Of a stretch of 64,000 nt of DNA, positions 4,523 to 48,639 are shown in pieces. Within the stretch, counting starts at the first letter, position 1. Each line of letters starts with the position of its first letter. Origin of the DNA: Mustelus asterias (Eukaryota). The notes beneath the pieces are model-generated. The model worked only from the letters and a program-made list of their open reading frames with translations, made no database searches and was not told the DNA's origin. Made by a program: the position numbers and the translations under genes. The stretch lies in NCBI RefSeq assembly GCF_964213995.1, contig NC_135808.1:35154001-35218000 (forward strand), written 5' to 3'.

Positions 4523-5251
4523 TTCTGATTTTGAGGAATGGCCATTTGATCAGTGTTTTGGAATGGTCTGAGTATGTGAAAGCTCCTGTTCCTTTCTTTT
4601 ATTTATAATTGTGGGTACAATCTTTGCATTAAATCTTCAAATAGTTTCAAAGCTGAAGCACAATTCTCAGACCCACCCCAATGATTGGCTGAGCAGTGAT
4701 TGCCATGTAACTATTGGTGGGCTGTCAGTGCATTTCAGTCCCAGATTGGCTGTGAGAGATAGAAACATAGAAAGTAGGAGGAGGCCATTCAGCCCTTTAA
4801 GCCTACTCTGCTATTCAATATGATCATGGCTGGTCAAACTCAATATCCTGATCCCACCTTCCTTTATACGCTTTGATCCCCTTCACCCCAGTGCTATATC
4901 TAACTGTTTCTTGAAAATAATCAGTGTTTTGCCTCAACTACTTTCTGTGCTGGTGAATCCAATAGGCTGACCATTCTCTGGGTGAAAAAAATTCTCCTCA
5001 TCACCGTCCTAAATGGTCTCCCCAGGATCCTCAGACTATGGTGCTTGGTTCTTGACATCCCCACCTTTGGGAACATCCTCCTTGCATCTACCCTGTCTAG
5101 TCCTGTTAAAATTTTATCGGTTTCTATGAGATCCACCCCCATTCTTCTGCACTCCAGCGAATACAATCCTAACTGACTCAGTCTCCCTTCATACGTCAGT
5201 CCCACCATCCCAGGAATCAATCCGGTAAATCTTCTCTGCATTCCCACTAGA

Positions 5252-25394: not shown

Positions 25395-26186
25395 TCAGTC
25401 ACAGGCCTGACTTGGCTTCCCCGCTGTGTGAATGCGACGGTGATCCAACATGCCCCATAATTGTCCAAACTCCTTATTACACACATCACATCTGAATGTT
25501 TTCTTCTTCCCTGCGTGAATGCGCCGGTGCTTCACCAGGCCTGTTAACAGTGCAAAGCCCTTATTACACACCTCACACTTGAATGGTTTATCCCCAGTGT
25601 GAATGCGTTGGTGCTGACGGAGGCGTGATGGCCGGGAGAATGATTTCTTACACACTTCACAGGAGAATGGTTTCTCCCCAGTGTGAGTGCGTTGATGTTC
25701 ACGGAGGTTCGATGACTGGGAGAATGATTTGTCGCAAACTTCACAGGTGAATGGTTTCTCCCCAGTGTGAATGTGTCGGTGTTGTGCAAGCGCTGATGAA
25801 CGTGTAAAGGCTCGCTCACAAATCTCACACCTGAATGGATTCTCCCCTGTGTGAATGCTCTGGTGTATCAGGAACTCTGTCGATGTTGGAAAAGCTTTAT
25901 CACAAAACTCACACTTGAAGGGTTTCTCACCTGTGTGGATTGTCTGATGGACCTGGAGGGTCGATAAGTGTCTGAAAGCTTTCTCACACACGTCACAGCG
26001 GAATGGCTTCTCCCCTGTGTGAATGCGTTTGTGTCTGTGGAGATGCCACAACTTTGAGAATGATTTGTTGCAAACCTCACATGTAAATGGTTTCTCTCCA
26101 GTGTGAGTGCGTTGGTGGTTATGAAAGTGGGTCGAGCGCAAGAACGATTTGTCACACAACTCACACTTCAACAGTTTCTTTTCCAT
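25395..26186 (-). CDS. Tandem C2H2 zinc-finger protein B, 9 fingers, no effector domain
   Basis: gccacATG MEKK start, 9 fingers with TGEKPF-type linkers; acceptor ttttacag| at 26611/26610. Confidence 0.92.
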   Translation of the reverse strand: MEKKLLKCELCDKSFLRSTHFHNHQRTHTGEKPFTCEVCNKSFSKLWHLHRHKRIHTGEKPFRCDVCEKAFRHLSTLQVHQTIHTGEKPFKCEFCDKAFPTSTEFLIHQSIHTGENPFRCEICERAFTRSSALAQHRHIHTGEKPFTCEVCDKSFSQSSNLREHQRTHTGEKPFSCEVCKKSFSRPSRLRQHQRIHTGDKPFKCEVCNKGFALLTGLVKHRRIHAGKKKTFRCDVCNKEFGQLWGMLDHRRIHTAGKPSQACD

Positions 26187-26699
26187 GTGGCAGTCCCTGT
26201 GGCTACAGCTGGTACAATGGAGTCTGTGGGGCCTTCCTCACTCGCCTCCCACTTGGACAGCTTCTCCCCTTTAGGAATGAGTTAGTGGTTCATGAGACTC
26301 GATGAATGACTGAAGCTCTCACCACACTTGGGAGTCCACTCGCACTTCTTCCCAGTCTCAACATGACCAATCACCCACAGCTGAACCTTTGGAAAGGCTG
26401 GTTCTGAATGAAGGTTCCACACCACTGACCAGTTTGAGATCTGATGATATATCAAAGCTCCTGAACCGGACCGATTTCCAGATGATGGTTTCACTGCCCA
26501 ACCTTCTCTGCGTTGAACAATGCTGTGAAAGGACTGGACATCTTTCCACAGTTGTGTTTGGATAATGTTCAGGATCTCTGTATTCTCTGGTGTAGTACAG
26601 TGCAATCCTTCTGTAAAACAGGAAAAGGAAACATCATTTCCTCCAACTCCCTCTCCTCCTTCGCTGAAGGGGCTGACTCCTCAAAGATAGTTCCACAGT

Positions 26700-29814: not shown

Positions 29815-30089
29815 CCCCTTGTTTTTCCAAAATAATTTGAAGAAAACACATTGGATATGAAGTGTGAGAAGCCAAGGAAAATATTGCTTCAGTGTAGCTG
29901 ATTGAAAGGTTCTGGTTTATCCTGGGAAATTAGATACACTGCTCTCACTCAGACTCCATATCCCAAATTCAGCTCTCAGACACAGCACTGGGCAAAATTA
30001 TCAAATCCAAGCCCAGGCTTTTGGGAAAGGCCAAAGGCCTTCAGGTAAAATCTTTAAAAAAGACATTTCAATAAATGTGTCTCTGCCCT

Positions 30090-30660
30090 CCCAGATAATT
30101 ACACCTCACCTTCTCATATTCAGCAATGACCCATCAACAAAACTCAGCCTGTAAATCAGAAGGGAAATGCTTCCAATAAACACACTCAATATCCAACACA
30201 CAGCTCCAATCAAACAGCTCAGCACAAAGCACCGAGTAAACAGGGCTCTCAGCTGGATCTTCTCACACAGCATAAGGGGCATTTCCACACCTGATTCCCC
30301 ACAGGATAGTCAGACTGCCTGAATATTAGTGTGGATATTATGCAATGTAATTATTATAAATTCTGCTCCTTCACTCACCATCTCCTCACTTGGTTTTCAG
30401 TCCCTACAGGAAGTGAAGCAGCTGTGAAAGAGGAAGAGGAGAGAATGGGCAGAGTGGGTGGGCTCTCTGATTGACGTCTCTCACAGCCAATCCTAATATT
30501 TCTGGAGTAACAGGAGTTTCCTGAACTTTGGGAAACTGACCGGTGAAACGGAGGCGACTTTGAGCAGCAGATCAGGTGGAGATTTAAACTTGTCATTGTC
30601 CCATCTGAATAAAACCTCACTTATTGCAGCTGCTGTCTCAGTTCCCCCGGTAAATGTTTT
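30090..30660 (-). promoter_or_regulatory. ZNF promoter/first-exon module, copy B
   Basis: Reverse complement of the module; ATG 30381-30379 followed by a donor; micro-exon 30148-30110. Confidence 0.72.
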
Positions 30661-35457: not shown

Positions 35458-36122
35458 ACCATAAGACATAGGAGCAGAATTAGGCCACTCGGCCCATCGA
35501 GTCTGTTCCGCCATTCAATCATGGCTGATATTTTCTCATCCCCATTCTTCTGCCTTTTCCCCATAACCTTTGATCCCCTTAGTAATCAAGAACCTATCTA
35601 TCTCTGTCTTAAAGACACTCAGTGACCTGGCCTCCACAGCCTTCTGCGGCAAAGAGTTCCACAGATTCACCACTCAGGCTGAAGAAATTCCTCCTAATCT
35701 CTGTTTTAAAGGATCGTCTCTTTAGCCTGTGATTATGCCCTCTTGTTCTAGTTTTTCCTACGAGTGGAAACATCCTCTCCACATCCACTCTAACCAGGCC
35801 TTGCAGTATCCTGTAAGTTTCAATAAGATCCCCCCTCATCCTTCTAAACTCCAACGAGTACAGACCCAGAGTCCTCAACCGTTCCTCATACGACAAGCTT
35901 TTCATTCCAGGGATCATTCTTGTGAACCTCCTCTGGACCCTTTCCAAGGCCAGCACATCATTCCTTAGATATGGGGCCCAAAACTGCTCACAATATCCAA
36001 ATGGGGTCTGACCAGAGCCTTGTACAGCCTCAGAAGTACATCCCTGCTCTTGTATTCGAGCCCTCTTGACATGAATGTTAACATTGCGTTTGTCTTTCTA
36101 ACTGCCAACTGAACCTGCATGT
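35458..36122 (-). mobile_element. CR1 LINE 3' fragment, target of the provirus; continues at 43071-43100
   Basis: ORF 35609-35956 ([14 protein letters not shown]); gaacctgcATGT..ATGTtaaccttaag reads through once the provirus is removed. Confidence 0.85.
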
Positions 36123-36338
36123 TGTGGTAATATAATCAGGGCCTAGTTTTAAGGCTGATTAAATTGGACATCCTAAATTAAAGAATTGGGCATATTAAAA
36201 TCAAACAGTCAAACCTCAGCCAGGCCAATTATACAAATACACAAACATGTCTGGGCCTGGCCCATCAATAAGGGCACCGGGGTATAACCTTGGAGTAAGC
36301 AAATTGGTCGAAAGTATCTGAAAATTACAGGTACAACA
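36123..36338 (+). repeat. 5' LTR, internally deleted
   Basis: Matches both ends of the 3' LTR with about 12 differences in 216 nt (hand count); the middle is missing. Confidence 0.9.
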
Positions 36339-36340
36339 TT

Positions 36341-36358
36341 TGGCACCCCAGACGGGAC
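36341..36358 (+). promoter_or_regulatory. Primer-binding site, tRNA-Arg(CCT)-type
   Basis: TGGCACCCCAGACGGGAC, 2 nt after the LTR end, complementary to the recalled vertebrate tRNA-Arg-CCT 3' end (..GUCCCAUCUGGGGUGCCA). Confidence 0.8.
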
Positions 36359-37440
36359 TTCGATAAGAAGTGATACGTTGCTCTGAAGTCGAACCTTCAA
36401 CCCGGTATTCTCCAACACTCCATCTGAGCCTGAATTAAGAGGGCAAGTTGCCCCACGTTACGGCCAGTCTTAAGTGAGTGAAGGACTAATACAGATTCGA
36501 CCAGTAAATTGGGCCACAAACCCAGTGTCTGTAACACAAGGTTTGACAAACTGCGTAGCTAGAACTAGGATAGTCAAGGGAATTTGGGTAAAATCTACAG
36601 GCAGGAATTTAGTGAAAACTGGACCCCTACCCCGATCCCTTACCTATACCCATGTGACGAACCCTAAAAGGAAATAATTATGGCCAGTCATGCCGAATGG
36701 GAGGAAGTTCTCCGTTTATATTTGAACCATAAGTGGCCCAAATGGATGCAGTGGGGTGACGCCCCGAAACCGGATCTGGGATCCAAGGGACAGAATTGTT
36801 GGAGTCGTGTCCATAATGAAATGGGTAAAAGGGCTCCCAAAATTAGGAAGGCGATTGCTAGTTGTCTGGAACAGTGCTGTGGTAGAGAAGCAGAGATTAT
36901 CCGGGTTAAACGGGACAGAGAAGCCCAGGTAACCCAACTAAAGCAGGACTTAATGAGTGCTACCTTGCGCATATAGCAATTGGAAGCGGAGGTAGGCACA
37001 CGAGCGGAAAGAAACCAGATTAATATGATACACATGAGCCAAGTCCAGGCTCAATGTGATAAAGCCTGCCAAAAGGCACAGCGCGCTGTCAGTGAGAGAG
37101 AGGCCGCGTTGCGGTAGAGGAAGTTAAACGTAAATGCAGCGACCTGCAGACTGCAGTAAAAGTTTTGCACCAAGCAGGAAAAGCAAATACAGCTCACTCC
37201 AAATGCCTGCATGAGATTGAAGATTCAAAGTCACAACTAGCCATAAAAAGGGTGTAATGTGTGACCTAGGGGTAGAGTGGGGGATTTAGAAGAGGATGCC
37301 TGCCATTATGCAACAGCTAGCGTCACTGCCGACTGGGGACCCCCACCTCCCTTCCCGGTAATGGAACCAACGGCACCACCTCATCCGGCCCGCATCCCGG
37401 AAAACTCAGTCTCAGCTCCTAGTCCTTGTACCATCCCAAT

Positions 37441-37548
37441 CGATTTTCACTCCATCTGACGAAGGGGCAGCGCTCCGAAAGCTTATGGTATTTGCTACCA
37501 AATAAACCTGTTGGACTTTAACCTGGTGTTGTGAGACTTCTTACTATG
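37441..37548 (+). mobile_element. Penelope-type terminal fragment inserted in gag
   Basis: Reverse complement of ~18792-18888; flanked by duplicated ccatcccaat (37431-37440 and 37549-37558). Confidence 0.75.
37452..37488 (+). ncRNA. Minimal hammerhead ribozyme
   Basis: ccat-CTGACGA-aggggcagcgctcc-GAAA-gc-TT-atgg. Confidence 0.72.
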
Positions 37549-39426
37549 CCATCCCAATAAGCCCAGTCACTAATCCGGTTCGCGTACCAATTAATCCGGT
37601 CACCACCCAACGACAGGACGGACAGAACCACAATGTGACTTATGTAACTCCATACACCATGACCCAACTCACTGACATAGCTAAAGTGATTGGAATATTC
37701 GAACTCTCTGGGGATCCACATGCTCTCTTTGACCAGGTCACCCAATATCATGTTTTAAACGGCCTAGACGAGGCAGAAAAGGTTAAACTTATTTTGCTAT
37801 GTTTAAGTCCTGCCATCTGTTCCGCCCCACCCGAACCCCAGAACGTGGCCGGGGGAACCCTACCAGAAATGAAGGCAGCCATTCTGGCCGCCATAGGCTA
37901 CAATAGGGATGACCCGGTACAAGGTTTAAACAACTGCCAACAAAAGCGAGGGGAACACCCGACAGCCTCTGCTGGCCGACTATGGAACCAATTTGTTGCG
38001 GTTTTCGGCCAATTTAATCGAGTTCAATTAAACGTACACCACCGATCCACATGGATCCGGACCCTGATAGCACACGCCACTGAGGGGAGCTGGAAAGCCT
38101 GTGAGAATTTTGACCTTGATGATAATGCACACACACAAGCCTGGGCCACCAGTAAAATGACTCGCGTGTGGGAACGGGAAGTCAGACAAACAGACACCCC
38201 CAAGTCCACAAAACACGGATTGATGAACCCAATCCACACAGACCCGGCCCCGGTTTGGCGGAACGAAGGGGGAGGTGGAAACAGGGGACTGGGAAACTCG
38301 GGGCACCCACCCCCATATACCCCTGCCAATCATCGATACAGAAAACTGCAGCCCCGTGCAGAACCCCGATATATTCCCAACCCCAGGTACAGTGAACAAG
38401 ATAAAACCAACCCCAGATATCCACCCCCATAAGCACAGTATTATAACTGCGGGCAACCCAACCATTTTGCCCAGTACTGTAGGGCACCACCATATTTCAG
38501 GGGACCAGCAAACCCCAAACACCCATACACTATTGCTGATCGCCGACACAGGGAATAGGACATAGGCCCAACCTCCAACACCGAGAACCATACAGAGCCG
38601 AGCCCAGAGGCCCACGCCCACAAGTGCAGTGTTATACCTGCAGGCAACCCAACCATTTTGCCTGGAACTGTAGGGCACCATGCAACGGCACCACGCAACG
38701 ACCATCTCAGCGGTTCCCCGACGATGGACCCTGACCCATGCCCCTCGAAGGACCGGCCTGACAAACCATTATAACCCACACCCTGTACCCCCAGGACCAG
38801 CACACGCATCCTTGGTTCCTGCCCCAATTTACAGGGCTTCAGGACTAAAACCCTGGCCCAGGGGACCCCGACGAAAAGGATGGGGCACCTACAAACCTTA
38901 CCCCCTATGGCGCCCCTGGTACCGGGACTCCCAAAAACGTTTGACCCGGCACTCACTACCAGAGATGGTAATGCAGTGAGTACCCGGCAGCCAAGGCCCG
39001 CCCACATAGGTTCCCTCCACTAAGGAAGAATCAGGACATCACAGTTCAAATTGTAAATAGCTTTATCCATCCACTCCATGCATCACCCAATTGAAAAGGG
39101 TTTCTTATCTGCCCACATTATACTGCACCATAATCTTCCGACACACCACAGTTTGGTTGTGGGATGAAGAATCTATTATACTGTGCCATAGTCCTCCAAC
39201 AACAAGGACACATGCCACATACCCAACATTTTATTTTCACACTCTGCAAACTCCTTACCCCACTCAACCCCATTAAACACTGATTGCCGACCAACCCTTC
39301 GTATGACACTATTGGGCCTTTATTATTCATTCACTTATTTCTTTTTTTTTAAAGTGGAAAGTCATATGACATTCTAGTAAAGAAAAGGAAAAGAGAATCA
39401 GGTACTAATAAGAATTACCAGGTGAA

Positions 39427-39616
39427 TCATAGAATCATAGAAGCCCTACAGTGCAGAAGGAGGCCATTCGGCCCATCGAGTCTGCACCGACCACAATCCC
39501 ACCCAGGCCCTACCCCCACATATTTTACCCGCTAATCCCTCTAACCTACGCATCTCAGGACTCTAAGGGGCAATTTTTAACCTGGCCAATCAACCTAACC
39601 CGCACATCTTTGGACT
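39427..39616 (-). mobile_element. 5'-truncated HE1 SINE inside the provirus
   Basis: Matches the HE1 3' half (compare 21456-21650). Confidence 0.85.
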
Positions 39617-39655
39617 ATTGTTATCTACCTTGGTGCTACCTTGATCTCCCCCAAA

Positions 39656-41700
39656 ATGAACTACATACTTCTCTGCTATCTGGGACTCCTCGTCTCAGAC
39701 TGAACCACAGACACCACACCAACCGAAGACCAGAAGATCAGCCTATGATACCCCGGATATATGTGGTTCACCCCACCAGATGCAGACAAATGTGAGGATG
39801 ACATCCTATAGGTACACCCCAATAAGAGTATCACCTATGGGTGTAATAACCAAAGAGTGGTGTACAGGAAAGATAATGGGAGCTCTGATTACTGCTCCCT
39901 AAGGACGACCCTCACTAGTGATTGGTGGGCGTACACTAACCCTGGGTGCATGGAGCTAGCCTGTCTAGCCCATAGCCCAGAAAAAGGGCTGGAATTGGGA
40001 AAGAAGTGCCCCGGTAAGGTTATTCAGAACGAGTACATATACAATGAAATTAAGAATAGGTTAAGACCAACTGTTAGCTCACCCATCCCCACTTGTCCCG
40101 AAACCACCCCAGGGCCCCAAAATGGGTTGATACTAAAACATACAAGGAAAATATTATTCGACAACACACACTACGAATTGGTACCAGTAGTGGTAGATTT
40201 AGCCAGAACACAATTACCAGACTGGTGTCCCTCCCCACTTAGAAAATTGTACCTCCACTTGACCCAGAGGCTGCTAAGCTGAAAGACCGGGACACACACG
40301 GGGGAAGTGCCGCCCAGGTCAAAGGGACGCAAGAGGAGGGAAATCCTGAATGATCTGGTAACTGCATACGGAGCGGGGATATCCACCATTAATGCACTGG
40401 ATCCAGCTGATTTGGATAATAAGCTCAAGTCCTAACCCGACAAGTTAAACAGACCTTGGACAGCTTAAATGAAAATGCTCGGCAAGATGCCGAGGGAGAT
40501 TTGGCTGAGAACAGGGCTACTGGCTTATAGTTACTGTACTAGAAGAACATGCCCAAACTAAAATTCAGATCGCCCAAGGGAGGGTGATGATGCCAGGCAA
40601 CAGAACCGAACCCTATGTAGCATCTATGGGCAATGGATGGTCGAGCAGTTAAGAGAGAATCTTGACCAGGTTAGCAGGGGGAAAGTTGCGTCCGGATCAG
40701 TGATGAACAGATTGAACACCTGTACTGGGGAAAAGGACACCCCAATGTCACTAACTGCCAATTACGGCAACTGACCAAGGTCTGGTCTAACGATAGTTGT
40801 AGATGAATCCCGGGGACCGCACTAGGAATGGTTTTGGGGATCCCAGTAACATTAAAAGATAAGGTTGGGTTGAGACTTTTTGAAGCCAAAAATAAAGGGA
40901 TTGTTAAAGGAGGGATGTGGATGGGATACCAGGGGACTCTACTGTATGTGGTTGTGAAAAGAGGGAAGCTCATAGGTACCAGTCTGGAGAAATGTGAACA
41001 CACAGACAAAATGGTCATGTGCCCATATCCAGTGTATGAAAATGAACATGCCCTGTGTGGATTCAGAACAACCACTGACCTAAATTGTACACTGGAGATT
41101 CGAAATTTGGAAAGGGATGTCACCGGGTGGCTTACAGGGGGGGAGGGAGAATATTGTATTACAACCTCACTAGAAAATTACCAGTATGGGGCAGCCATAA
41201 CATCCACGACATTACCTTGTGCATTAAACCACACAGTCCCGCTAGGATAGGATTAATTGAGATGGTAGCATACACAGAAGAGAGAAAACACTAATAAATG
41301 CTAGCAAGGAATTGAGACAAAGCTTAGGGGACTATTTTGAAAAATTTGATACCGGGATAACACTTCTACCTGAGAAACTTCAACAAATTCGGACACAATT
41401 GATCACAGCACACAAGACCTTTGTCAAAGTGGTGCAACAAACAGGGGAAATAAAAAAGAATATTGTGAAATTAGAGTCACTACATGGTGGGATGACCTCA
41501 GGGATTGGGGTTCAAATGTCCAAATCCACCCATGGGTCCGCATTCTGTCACACCTGGCCGTAATAGGAATCCTACTTATGGCAGTGTACCTAACCATCCT
41601 CACATTTAAATTCGCCCGATGGAAGAAGGAATTTCTGGAAAACCTGGACTCGGCAAGGGCCATCCGACATGGGGAAAGGCTCTACAATCAAGAACCTTGA
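39656..41700 (+). pseudogene. env: env relic: class-I fusion (F-like) glycoprotein
   Basis: Signal peptide MNYILLCYLGLLV; furin site RKRR at 40328-40339 followed by EILNDLVTAYGAGISTINALD; heptad region; Cys-rich domain (40828-41250); WWDDLRDW then a transmembrane helix ILSHLAVIGILLMAVYLTILTF; TGA at 41700; several stops and frameshifts. Confidence 0.82.
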
Positions 41701-41945
41701 TACTCCCATCTATATTGTAATATGTATAGTCACTTGTCATTTTGTACTGTTTATTACTTTGTTTTGTATTTACCCGATTGATGTATTGTTTCTTTATTGT
41801 TTTTTTAAATTATTTTACTTCATTTAAATTTGTTAGTACTATTATGGGTTAGGGATGATACTATCAACCCCAGATTTGGGGTACTTGCTTGTTGAGATGG
41901 TTTGGTAAGGATTGTGTGATCCGGTTCGCTGACGCTCACTGAATC

Positions 41946-41957
41946 AAGAGGAGAGAA
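41946..41957 (+). other. Polypurine tract
   Basis: aagaggagagaa immediately before the TG of the 3' LTR. Confidence 0.8.
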
Positions 41958-43070
41958 TGTGGAATATAATCTGGGCCTAGTTTTAAGGCTGATTAAATTG
42001 GATATCCTAAATTAAAGAATTGGGCATATTAAAATCAAACAGTCAAACCTCAGGTAGGCCAATTATACGAATACACAAGCATGTCTGGGCCTGGCCCGTC
42101 AAAGATCATTGCACTCTACTGAGACCCAGCAGGAGATCATCGCACCCCATTGAAATGTACCAGCCTATTGTTAGAAGCCCAGATCGGGCCAGACTTTAGA
42201 AACATAGAAACCCTACAGTGCAGAAGGAGGCCATTCGGCCCATCGAGTCTGCAACGACCACAATCCCACCCAGGCCCTACCCCCACATATTTACCCGCTA
42301 ATCCCTCTAACCTATGCATCCCAGGACGCTAAGGGGCAATTTTTAACCTGGCCAATCAACCTAACCCGCCAATCAACCTAACCCACATGGAGCACACCAG
42401 GATGGTAGGGAGTGGGATAGCTTGATCTTGGTTTCAGATGAAGGTCGGCACAACATCGTGGGCCGAAGGGCCTGTTCTGTGCTGTACTGTTCTATGTTCT
42501 ATGTTCTATCTTTGGGTGACTTTCTGTCACCTAGAGTTCCTGCAGTTATCTGGCAACAGATTACATGTCAGTAACACCATGGAGATGGACACCTAGGGAC
42601 GGACCCCAGTGTCCTGTCAGGCAGACATCAAGAAACCCACTGGGTATTGCAACCCCCTTATTGGCCGGAAACCAGAGAAGTTTCTGGAAAGGCAGGCGGA
42701 TAAAGGTACACATCTCAGACACACCAGGAGCGAAGACTCGATGAGGGAGGTGACCTTGACCATGCGGAAGACTGACCAGAGAAGGAAGGAAGAAGCTGCC
42801 ATTGAGACTCACCTTCGTGACGACGGACCAGAGGGACTCAGATAATCGGGCCTGCAGTTTGACCAAACCATCTTTGCCGGTAGTATACTTGAATCTGGGG
42901 TATCCTCTTGTTTTATGTGGGTAATTTAAGGGTTAATAGTGTTATTATTAATAAACTTATTGAACCTTTACTTGTGCTTGTCCTTTGTCCATCTTGCAAA
43001 TAAGAGCACCGGGGTAAAACCTTGGAGTAAGCAAACTGGTCGAAAGTATCTGAGAATTACAGGTACAACA
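41958..43070 (+). repeat. 3' LTR, containing a composite SINE/LINE insert at 42198-42509
   Basis: Starts tgtgg, ends gtacaaca; AATAAA at ~42950; followed by the TSD. Confidence 0.9.
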
Positions 43071-44147
43071 ATGTTAACCTTAAGAAAATCTTGAACAAGA
43101 GGGACCTGAACATGGCCCTTGCAGCTAAAGGGATCAAGGGGTATGGAGGGAAAGCAGGAGTGGATACTGAAAGTGCATGATGATATTGAATGGCAGTGCA
43201 GTCTCAAAGGGCCGAATGGCCTACTCATGCACCTATTTTCTATGAATCATAGAATCCCTACAGTACAGAAAGAGGCCATTCGGCCCATCGAGTCTGCACC
43301 AACCACAATCCCACCCAGGCCCTACCCTCATATCCCTACATATTTTACCCGCTAATCCCTCTAATCTCCTCCTGACATTTAATGGCATTACCATAGCTGA
43401 ATCTCCTACTACCAACATGCTGGAGGTTATATTTATTTTAGAGTAGTAAAACCTCTTAAAGTCCAGACGTCTTTTAAAGTGAAACGAAAGCTGAAGTTGC
43501 CTTAACATGCAATTGCAGAAAAACAAATTAAGCTTAAATATTTCGCTATCTATTTCCCGACATAAAATTCATTTCAAGTTTTGGGAAAGATATTGAGCCA
43601 TTTTCAACGGTTTTGTTATTGAGATTGATTCAAAGTTTGATGTAAGCCGAATACTGTGTTGTTGTTTGTCTACTGTTTTATCAATCTTCTGTATTGTGGC
43701 CAAATGGGCCACCTAAAATGGCGATTTACAAAGCACGCTGGGAAAATTTGCCAACTACAGAAACAGACAGACTGCAGCCTTAAATGACAGAGATAAACAG
43801 GCTGCAGCTCCAGACTATTGAATACACAGGATATAGGCAATCTCTAAGACAATGGACACTTTCTGATCAAACAGACTTGTTTACCAGACACACAGGTGCC
43901 TGAATCCCTTATTTGGGAGGGAGGTATGTTACCTACATGGCTCTAGCACCTACAGGCATGGCTGTTGGGTATTGATTGAATCCAATCAGCGTGGCAGCAC
44001 CTGATTGCTCTCTCTCTCACCAGACTTCACTGAGGACTGCAGAGAACAACACGCAGATAAAGGCAATTATCCTGGGTACTTGCAGTCATGCAAAAGTTGT
44101 TAAGGTCCAGTATTGAACTTGAACTTTAGTATTTCGTAAAGAAAAAT

Positions 44148-47449: not shown

Positions 47450-48022
47450 TGTCAAACATTTACCAGGGGAACTGAGACAGCAGCTGCAATAAGTGAGGTT
47501 TTATTCAGATGGGACAATGACAAGTTTAAATCTCCACCTGATCTGCTGCTCAAAGTCGCCTCCGTTTCACCGGTCAGTTTCCCAAGCTTCAGGAAACTCA
47601 TGTTACTCCAGAAATATTTGGATTGGCTGTGAGAGACGTCAATCAGAGAGCCCACCCACTCTGCCCATTCCTTCCTCTTCCTCTTTCACAGCTGCTTCAC
47701 TTCCTGTAGGGACTGAAAACCAAGTGAGGAGATGGTGAGTGAAGGAGCAGAATTTATAATAATTACATTGCATAATATCCACACTATTGGTCAGGCAGTC
47801 TGACTATCCTGTGGGGAATCAGGTGTGGAAATGCCCCTTATGCTGTGTGAGAAGATCCAGCTGAGAGACCTGTTTACTCGGTGCTTTGTGCTGAGCTGTT
47901 TGATTGGAGCTGTGTGTTGGATATTGAGTGTGTTTATTGGAAGCATTTCCCTTCTGATTTACAGGCTGAGTTGTGTTGATGGGTCATTGCTGAATATGAG
48001 AAGGTGAGGTGTAATTATCTGG
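47450..48022 (+). promoter_or_regulatory. ZNF promoter/first-exon module, copy D
   Basis: ATG|gtgagt at 47734/47735; micro-exon 47965-48003. Confidence 0.72.
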
Positions 48023-48639
48023 GAGGCGCTGTGACATATTTATTGAAATGTCTTTTAATGCCTCCATTAAAGATTTTACCTGAAGGTCTCGGCCTTTTCC
48101 AAAAGCCTGAGCTTGGATTTGATAGTTTTGCCCAGTGCTGTGTCTGATAATTGAATTTGGGATGTGCAGTCTGAGTGAGTGCAGTGTATCTAATTTCCCA
48201 GGATAAACCAGAACCCTTCATTCAGCTACACTGAAGCAGTATTTTCTTTACCTTCCAGCACTTCTTGCCCTGTGTGTTTTCTTCAAATAATTTGGGAAAG
48301 CAAGGGGAGAAATTTCAAAATCTCCATTGAATTACATTTTTTCTGAGTGTTTTTATTTTATACGCATACTTGAAGGATAAAACTTGTTTTTCCCAGCACA
48401 ACACAAGTTTTTGGGGAATTGGTAGCCCATTTTAAATGTTGCCCTCATGGTGCCTGGTAAGATGGGGCCTGGGTGGAGGAAAGAAAGTATCCATGTTGTC
48501 TGCTCCTGGTCACTGTCCAGTGTCCTTGCTGAAAATAGGTGTGTGACAATCAAGTGAGGAAAAAGAAAGGACTTCTATCTTGTCCCCACACAGGAGTAGC
48601 AGACCGGCACTTACTGTGGAACAGTCTCTAACTGGGAGG

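Follow-up and report, generated by a model that had tools for sequence, protein, structure and literature searches.

A decayed envelope gene in a pol-less shark provirus, predicted to be of the F type and likely carried by an SnRV-related retroviral family

The literature describes envelope proteins that resemble F-type fusion proteins from lokiretroviruses, foamy viruses and errantiviruses. An F-like Env is treated as a mark of the lokiretroviruses (PMC7947760, PMC9040795) and of foamy viruses, and the orthoretroviral Env is placed in a separate class Ia (PMC11468914). Endogenous retroviruses (ERVs) resembling the snakehead retrovirus (SnRV) are reported from the elephant shark (lineage I), and the clade Huo is described as infecting all vertebrate groups (PMC6001957, PMC4422223, PMC12193657). 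In zebrafish, the non-autonomous BHIKHARI ERVs, assigned to lokiretroviruses, are LTR elements that carry gag only and were amplified without pol (10.1101/2024.03.25.586437). As for captured envelope genes, a 2026 screen of 36 chondrichthyan species is described with syncytin-type queries and an ISD filter only, and for this reason could not find env genes of the F-type class.

We analysed a window of 64,000 nucleotides from Mustelus asterias, in which a decayed env occupies positions 39656–41700. We consider it highly probable that this gene belonged to a provirus lacking pol, from an ERV family that is likely SnRV-related (class III / clade Huo), with an Env predicted to be F-type, class Ib. 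Five stops, beginning at codon 16, interrupt its frame together with nine frameshifting indels, so that it encodes no protein; decay has gone furthest here among the 24 copies examined, namely the window copy and 23 of the closest, chosen by score. Because of this decay, a natural unbroken copy, P0001 (G000:C26; L005:1003-3057:-; 685 aa), with 93.6% nucleotide identity to the window env, was chosen as the working sequence and used for folding. The env sits inside a provirus at 36123–43070 with a 4-bp target duplication, LTRs, a tRNA-Arg primer site and gag, and without pol:

36119..36122, + strand: target-site duplication, left copy (ATGT); right copy at 43071–43074
36123..36338, + strand: remnant of the 5′ LTR (TG...CA) after an internal deletion, 146 + 72 nt left of ~830 nt
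36341..36358, + strand: primer-binding site, complement of tRNA-Arg(CCT), with one mismatch in the window copy
36680..38700, + strand: broken gag, with a repeat insertion at ~37441–37548 and a duplicated zinc-knuckle segment
38769..39010, + strand: 3′ junction of the pol deletion, then the terminal part of the integrase frame
39425..39631, + strand: SINE-like host interspersed repeat, directly 5′ of env
39656..41700, + strand: env pseudogene, predicted F type; five in-frame stops and nine frameshifting indels (~40430 to ~41465)
39704..40093, + strand: Cys-containing N-terminal extension of ~130 residues, ahead of the predicted F core
40328..40339, + strand: putative furin-type cleavage site RKRR; a basic site stands in the same columns in most relatives
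40343..40675, + strand: fusion-peptide-like segment and predicted HRA / domain III helices; coordinates mapped from P0001 (model helices 220–342)
40777..41281, + strand: predicted beta-rich domains I/II including the Cys cluster; pLDDT mostly 85–97, aligned to F proteins
41306..41697, + strand: predicted HRB helix, Trp-rich membrane-proximal segment, TM helix and 29-residue tail
41946..41957, + strand: polypurine tract
41958..43070, + strand: 3′ LTR with a host repeat inserted at ~42198–42517

Duplications of 4 bp were also found in 11 other copies read at both outer ends, six of them exact and five with one mismatch; in a twelfth, L054, the duplication is mismatched at two positions. The 5′ and 3′ LTRs of the window provirus differ at 11 of 217 columns. 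The primer-site pattern occurs at 19 genomic places against 0 for the reversed control, and ARAGORN called a tRNA-Arg(cct) at six of the eight fetched loci that match it. In the Gag of copy L035, zf-CCHC appears in two stretches. The repeat at 39425–39631 is not found at that position in other copies and has more copies elsewhere within the window.

In the surroundings, a 573-nt inverted repeat pair (30087–30659 and 47454–48026), 98% complementary and 16.8 kb apart, brackets the provirus, and the minus strand of 25416–26201 holds 84-nt tandem repeats that resemble a C2H2 zinc-finger array. The flanks of L049 (G000:C415:268640-278639) resemble the repeat that flanks the window 5′ LTR; since its target duplication differs from that of the window, L049 inserted independently into a repeat of this type.

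Three of the 24 copies carry pol (L047, L058, L063) and encode PR, RT, tether, RNase H and IN. Fourteen, the window copy among them, share one 3′ junction, at which they rejoin the pol-bearing L047 at its positions 5178–5183; five are truncated, and two are pol-less with other or uncertain junctions. From the shared junction we infer that one pol-deleted master was amplified, and Pol was then necessarily supplied in trans. The window form resembles BHIKHARI in this amplification without pol and differs from it in keeping both gag and env. Within the 24 copies, the subfamily with gag and env but no pol is the larger one, with at least 14 copies against 3 that bear pol, and its Gag has two zinc knuckles against one in L047. 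The LTR pairs of 11 dated copies differ by a K2P of 0.023–0.064, or ~5–15 million years on the mammalian rate that Wang and Han applied; slower evolution in sharks, if it holds, would make them older.

The architecture that the sequence-only reading had given to this env was recovered as a whole in the three-frame translation, with every feature in its place. An ATG and a hydrophobic N-terminus at 39656 mark the predicted signal peptide; the furin site RKRR, announced some 225 codons in, is found at codons 225–228 (40328–40339); the LDQVSRGKV motif lies at 40661–40687; and the cysteine pattern C-x8-C-x11-C-x9-C, at 40993–41088 of the window, recurs with identical spacing in P0001 (C449-x8-C458-x11-C470-x9-C480). 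The second helix, the Trp-rich segment, the TM helix (41542–41610) and the short tail are all present ahead of the stop at 41700. The post-cleavage subunit, estimated at ~450 aa, measures 457 aa in P0001, and the reported lack of an ISD/CX6CC motif agrees with P0001, in which neither CX6CC nor CXXC occurs. As for the fusion-peptide-like segment, EILNDLVTAYGAGISTINALD does follow RKRR, and the segment after the cleavage site (RKRR/RKKR, 225–228) is conserved and Gly/Ala-rich in relatives, but it is weakly hydrophobic, with no 19-residue hydropathy peak above 1.0 and with low pLDDT. The hydropathy of P0001 peaks at residue 4 and at 634–638, and its model contains long helices at 248–342 and 555–609; hydropathy and model together place the predicted signal peptide, HRA, HRB and single TM anchor of F-type fusogens.

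The AlphaFold model of P0001, a monomer built on an alignment of 33 sequences (A1), has a mean pLDDT of 64.5 and a pTM of 0.45, with pLDDT 70–97 in the core and low confidence over the first 141 residues. With Foldseek, the best PDB match was RSV F (E 2.8e-11), and hPIV3, NDV, henipavirus and hMPV F were also found, the matches listed being exclusively pneumo- and paramyxovirus F. A search independent of Foldseek, through 48,161 chains, gave 11 rows at Z>=8, ten F proteins and a foamy Env, with a top Z of 11.7. Realignment to the F proteins brought Z up to 13.2. Model residues 152–549, spanning both sides of the cleavage site, align to F proteins (Z 11.7–13.2, 290–340 aligned residues, rmsd 5–18, 8–15% identity), and the match takes in the beta domains flanking the cleavage site, beyond the coiled coils. 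As modelled, the three-domain F fold would be built from both cleavage products, as the alignments to RSV, hPIV3, NDV, henipavirus and hMPV F indicate. The TM-scores of the F matches are low (0.2–0.34, with large rmsd) and the model is a monomer, for which reasons the F fold is to be taken as predicted rather than solved.

Among predicted viral structures (BFVD), the matches were lispivirus-like, chuvirus and baculovirus glycoproteins and paramyxovirus F, together with feline foamy Env (E 1.3e-6) and the Envs of WEHV-1 (Q9WHI8; E 4.5e-12, TMq 0.28) and WDSV (A4GTG3; E 1.7e-8, TMq 0.14). These model matches suggest that the walleye epsilonretrovirus Envs may themselves be F-type. Foamy Env aligned at Z 8.6 in the postfusion and 7.5 in the prefusion form, and SnRV Env was named neither among the 50 BFVD rows listed nor among the Env homologs looked up by name. 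The top ESM Atlas clusters hold Fusion_gly PF00523 (18–21% of members) and Baculo_F (11–12%), with scores of 0.92–0.95, in a ranking where the recognition value of the query lay under the threshold of the tool. The proposal of an F-type class I fusogen is therefore backed by the structure matches and by ESM Atlas. At the level of primary sequence, Pfam returned no Fusion_gly or Baculo_F match for seven window fragments or for P0001, and Fusion_gly was not among the 25 of 43 families listed for the 33 members of A1. PDB sequence searches with P0001 and with a profile matched no solved F protein, and a word-index protein search gave 0 matches with P0001 and six short fragments with A1.

The N-terminal extension has a pLDDT below 50 in both models, the second of which, the extension folded alone, gave 29, and ESM Atlas gave nothing above 0.77 for it; these ~130 residues would likely bind a receptor. 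Cleavage falls at 228 in P0001 against ~115 in Loki-Xtr, by eye, which corresponds to ~130 extra residues before the F core. With pneumo- and paramyxovirus F, baculovirus F and errantivirus Env, the window Env shares the predicted class Ib core (residues 152–549); unlike them, it has an extra N-terminal domain and a weakly hydrophobic fusion peptide, and its element lacks a separate attachment-protein gene. Foamy virus Env is likewise a retroviral Env with an F fold; what sets it apart is a leader peptide that contains a second TM helix, and a length of ~980 aa (PMC11468914). Where the shark Env has its extension, some frog relatives (P0127, P0002) have an Ig V-set-like domain ahead of the F core. 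P0095 from a bamboo shark, a protein of 739 aa with an Ig-like annotation, appears to be a full-length Env belonging to the family of the window env.

Relatives of this Env are numerous. A genome search with one env piece of 147 aa gave 1121 candidate matches, of which 150 were scored, all at E<1e-37, so the match cannot be put down to chance. About 60 of the scored matches are at least 61% identical and make up the window family; the remainder, at 47–58%, form a second related family with pol. This second, more numerous family (L037–L046, e.g. G000:C4:81705001-81725000) has gag, pol and the same type of Env, about 55–63% identical, and no full-length open env was seen among the matches listed. 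A HMMER search of 1.84 billion representatives found 55 Env relatives; 25 of them were looked up, and those named come from sharks, skate, coelacanth and frogs. The frog Pol P0002 continues into an Env N-terminus that is 48% identical to the Env homolog P0127, and since this Pol belongs to the same group and this Env to the same family, their pairing is not specific to sharks. Some shark gene models with env or RT pieces (P0014, P0103, P0122, P0131), annotated as F-box, Niban, cadherin-related and lysophosphatidylcholine symporter, are probably annotation chimeras.

Among the named rows compared, SnRV is the closest to the reverse transcriptase of this family. SnRV reportedly uses a tRNA-Arg primer, as does the family described here by its primer site. 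Over 49 RT core columns, 38 are identical to SnRV (by script, via P0010, an RT matching the SnRV row of Wang and Han), against 29 for WDSV and 24 each for Loki-Ame, Loki-Lca and the foamy virus FFV, counted by eye over the same columns. The window family shares the LPQGF and PTVA motifs of SnRV. A tree of 19 RT rows, none of them Loki, gamma, epsilon or foamy, puts the family together with SnRV at only 88/87, apart from gypsy, and does not support the shark, frog and coelacanth Pols as one clade (51/35). Identity to SnRV across RT and RNase H is only 32%, and by eye the Loki rows come about equally close in the RT thumb. The nearest Pols, at 44–52% identity, come from frogs and coelacanth and are named 'NYNRIN-like'; the best solved match of the integrase is the foamy integrase, and a search of IMG/VR gave no relative of the RT. 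Unlike SnRV, the window family has a simple gag-pol-env layout in which no accessory genes were seen, an SH3_Tf2-1/p58-like integrase C-terminus, where MLVIN_C is annotated in SnRV, and an Env tail of 29 aa against 136. On these sequence comparisons, the family is likely an SnRV-related member of class III.

The sequence-only reading had named best hits to a gamma- or epsilonretroviral TM, or to a host membrane protein, as telling against an F-type Env. The epsilon Envs of WEHV-1 and WDSV are themselves among the top structural matches to the F-type model, so that this test was ill-posed. A gamma-type Env or a host membrane protein is in fact extremely improbable here, as the structure matches to F proteins refute it. 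The TM piece of one relative touches GP41 (E 0.041) and the profile touches a HERV-K chain (E 1.1), but neither the CXXC in SU nor the ISD and CX6CC in a short TM of gamma-type Envs were found, Pfam gave no TLV_coat-type match and nothing of the ISD family, the TM subunit has 457 aa, and the gene lies between gag and the 3′ LTR. The rows listed in the Foldseek PDB, BFVD and 48,161-chain searches held no gamma-type TM, which falls short of exclusion. The link drawn to lokiretroviruses holds for the type of Env and fails for the element. The Env layout is as described for lokiretroviruses (F-like, with signal peptide, RXKR, fusion peptide, coiled coil and TM; PMC7947760), Loki-Xtr Env has similar motifs by eye, and the relation to Mononegavirales F appears in structure, not in Pfam sequence scores, P0001 being without a PF00523 match. 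Dual RNase H (tether and RH; RT_RNaseH and RNase_H in L047) is also shared, and is not diagnostic because it is common to all retroviruses. The top Pol matches in frogs and coelacanth are 'NYNRIN-like' and the Loki integrase is reported near CGIN1/NYNRIN, but the same label is also carried by Pols outside the group of the window family. Against these likenesses stand the RT motifs, compared by eye: 24/24 Loki rows (Dataset S2, PMC7947760) show PFG in motif B and have W-P following DYR/DLR, where the window family has LPQGF and PTVA. The RT identity of 24/49 against 38/49 for SnRV points the same way. Wang and Han, moreover, list 0 lokiretroviruses in three chondrichthyan genomes (PMC7947760), and one of these species has relatives of the window Env. 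Membership, which would make this the first lokiretrovirus in cartilaginous fish, is thus largely refuted and very unlikely, and on the compared sequences we firmly hold that the element is not a lokiretrovirus.

Two further readings concern the origin and the fate of the env. Envelope swaps between retroviral lineages are frequent, as in XtERV-S, and recombination with a lokiretrovirus, an errantivirus or an RNA virus could have given a class III retrovirus its F-type env. Such an origin fits the best BFVD matches, which are glycoproteins of arthropod mononegaviruses and of baculoviruses and not retroviral Envs. However, the same Pol group goes with the same Env family in frogs (P0002, P0127, 48%), Env homologs range over sharks, skate, coelacanth and frogs, and foamy and walleye epsilon Envs match too, which fits an old shared ancestry. 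Such a recombination seems to us rather less likely than not; as it concerns where the env came from, it is compatible with the decayed F-type env of an SnRV-related provirus that we favour. The suggestion that intact relatives could be domestication candidates found one open copy and no signal of selection beyond its youth. P0001 is the sole full-length frame among the 150 matches listed, its pN/pS of 0.24 is the lowest of the 24 copies, and the gag at its locus is broken, all of which would suit a domesticated shark gene. Yet its LTR pair is the youngest of the 11 dated (K2P 0.023 against 0.031–0.064), the probability of zero lesions at that age is ~0.10 per copy, and its private dN/dS of 0.46 (9/6) is no different from that of the decaying copies (Fisher p=0.24) and indistinguishable from neutral. 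Domestication was accordingly set aside as very improbable. Contigs of four runs guessed to be RNA covered 28–30 of 30 bins, in short divergent pieces that are tied to no particular locus.

For the preferred reading, an active virus of this family would have carried a trimeric Env led by a signal peptide and cut by furin at RKRR, by analogy with F proteins. In the model, the three-domain F core would be assembled from both cleavage subunits, with the additional N-terminal ~130 residues likely binding a receptor, and HRA would refold onto HRB and so drive membrane fusion, again by analogy. A single pol-deleted master that kept gag and env was likely copied by helper proviruses supplying Pol. 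Shared variants of env have a dN/dS of ~0.34 (340 nonsynonymous and 310 synonymous cells, which are cells and not independent events), against 0.88 for private variants (457/159) and 1.23 for the window copy. The difference between shared and private variants suggests that Env was constrained during the spread of the family and has decayed neutrally since. Purifying selection during the spread favours reinfection as its likely mode; after insertion, the copies would have decayed neutrally, and the window copy is dead.

By itself, the window copy is an ordinary dead provirus. As the predicted fold is F-like while the family looks SnRV-related and not Loki, F-type Envs may be more widespread among retroviruses than reported. 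In the literature searched, with Hart 1996 and Calcraft 2024 outside its scope, we found no report of an F-type Env in SnRV-related or walleye retroviruses. An F-type Env on an SnRV-related Pol, together with the walleye Env matches, bears on the open question of the origin of retroviral env. We tentatively propose, as an idea that falls somewhat short of an even chance, that vertebrate retroviruses ancestrally had an F-type Env, and that the gamma-type, or class Ia, Env replaced it later. If true, foamy viruses, lokiretroviruses and the walleye epsilonretroviruses would all have kept the F-type Env, and so would the SnRV-related lineage found in sharks, skates, coelacanth and frogs; this would contradict the scenario of independent acquisition favoured by Wang and Han in 2022. 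Shark genomes would then contain a large stock of F-type envs invisible to syncytin screens.
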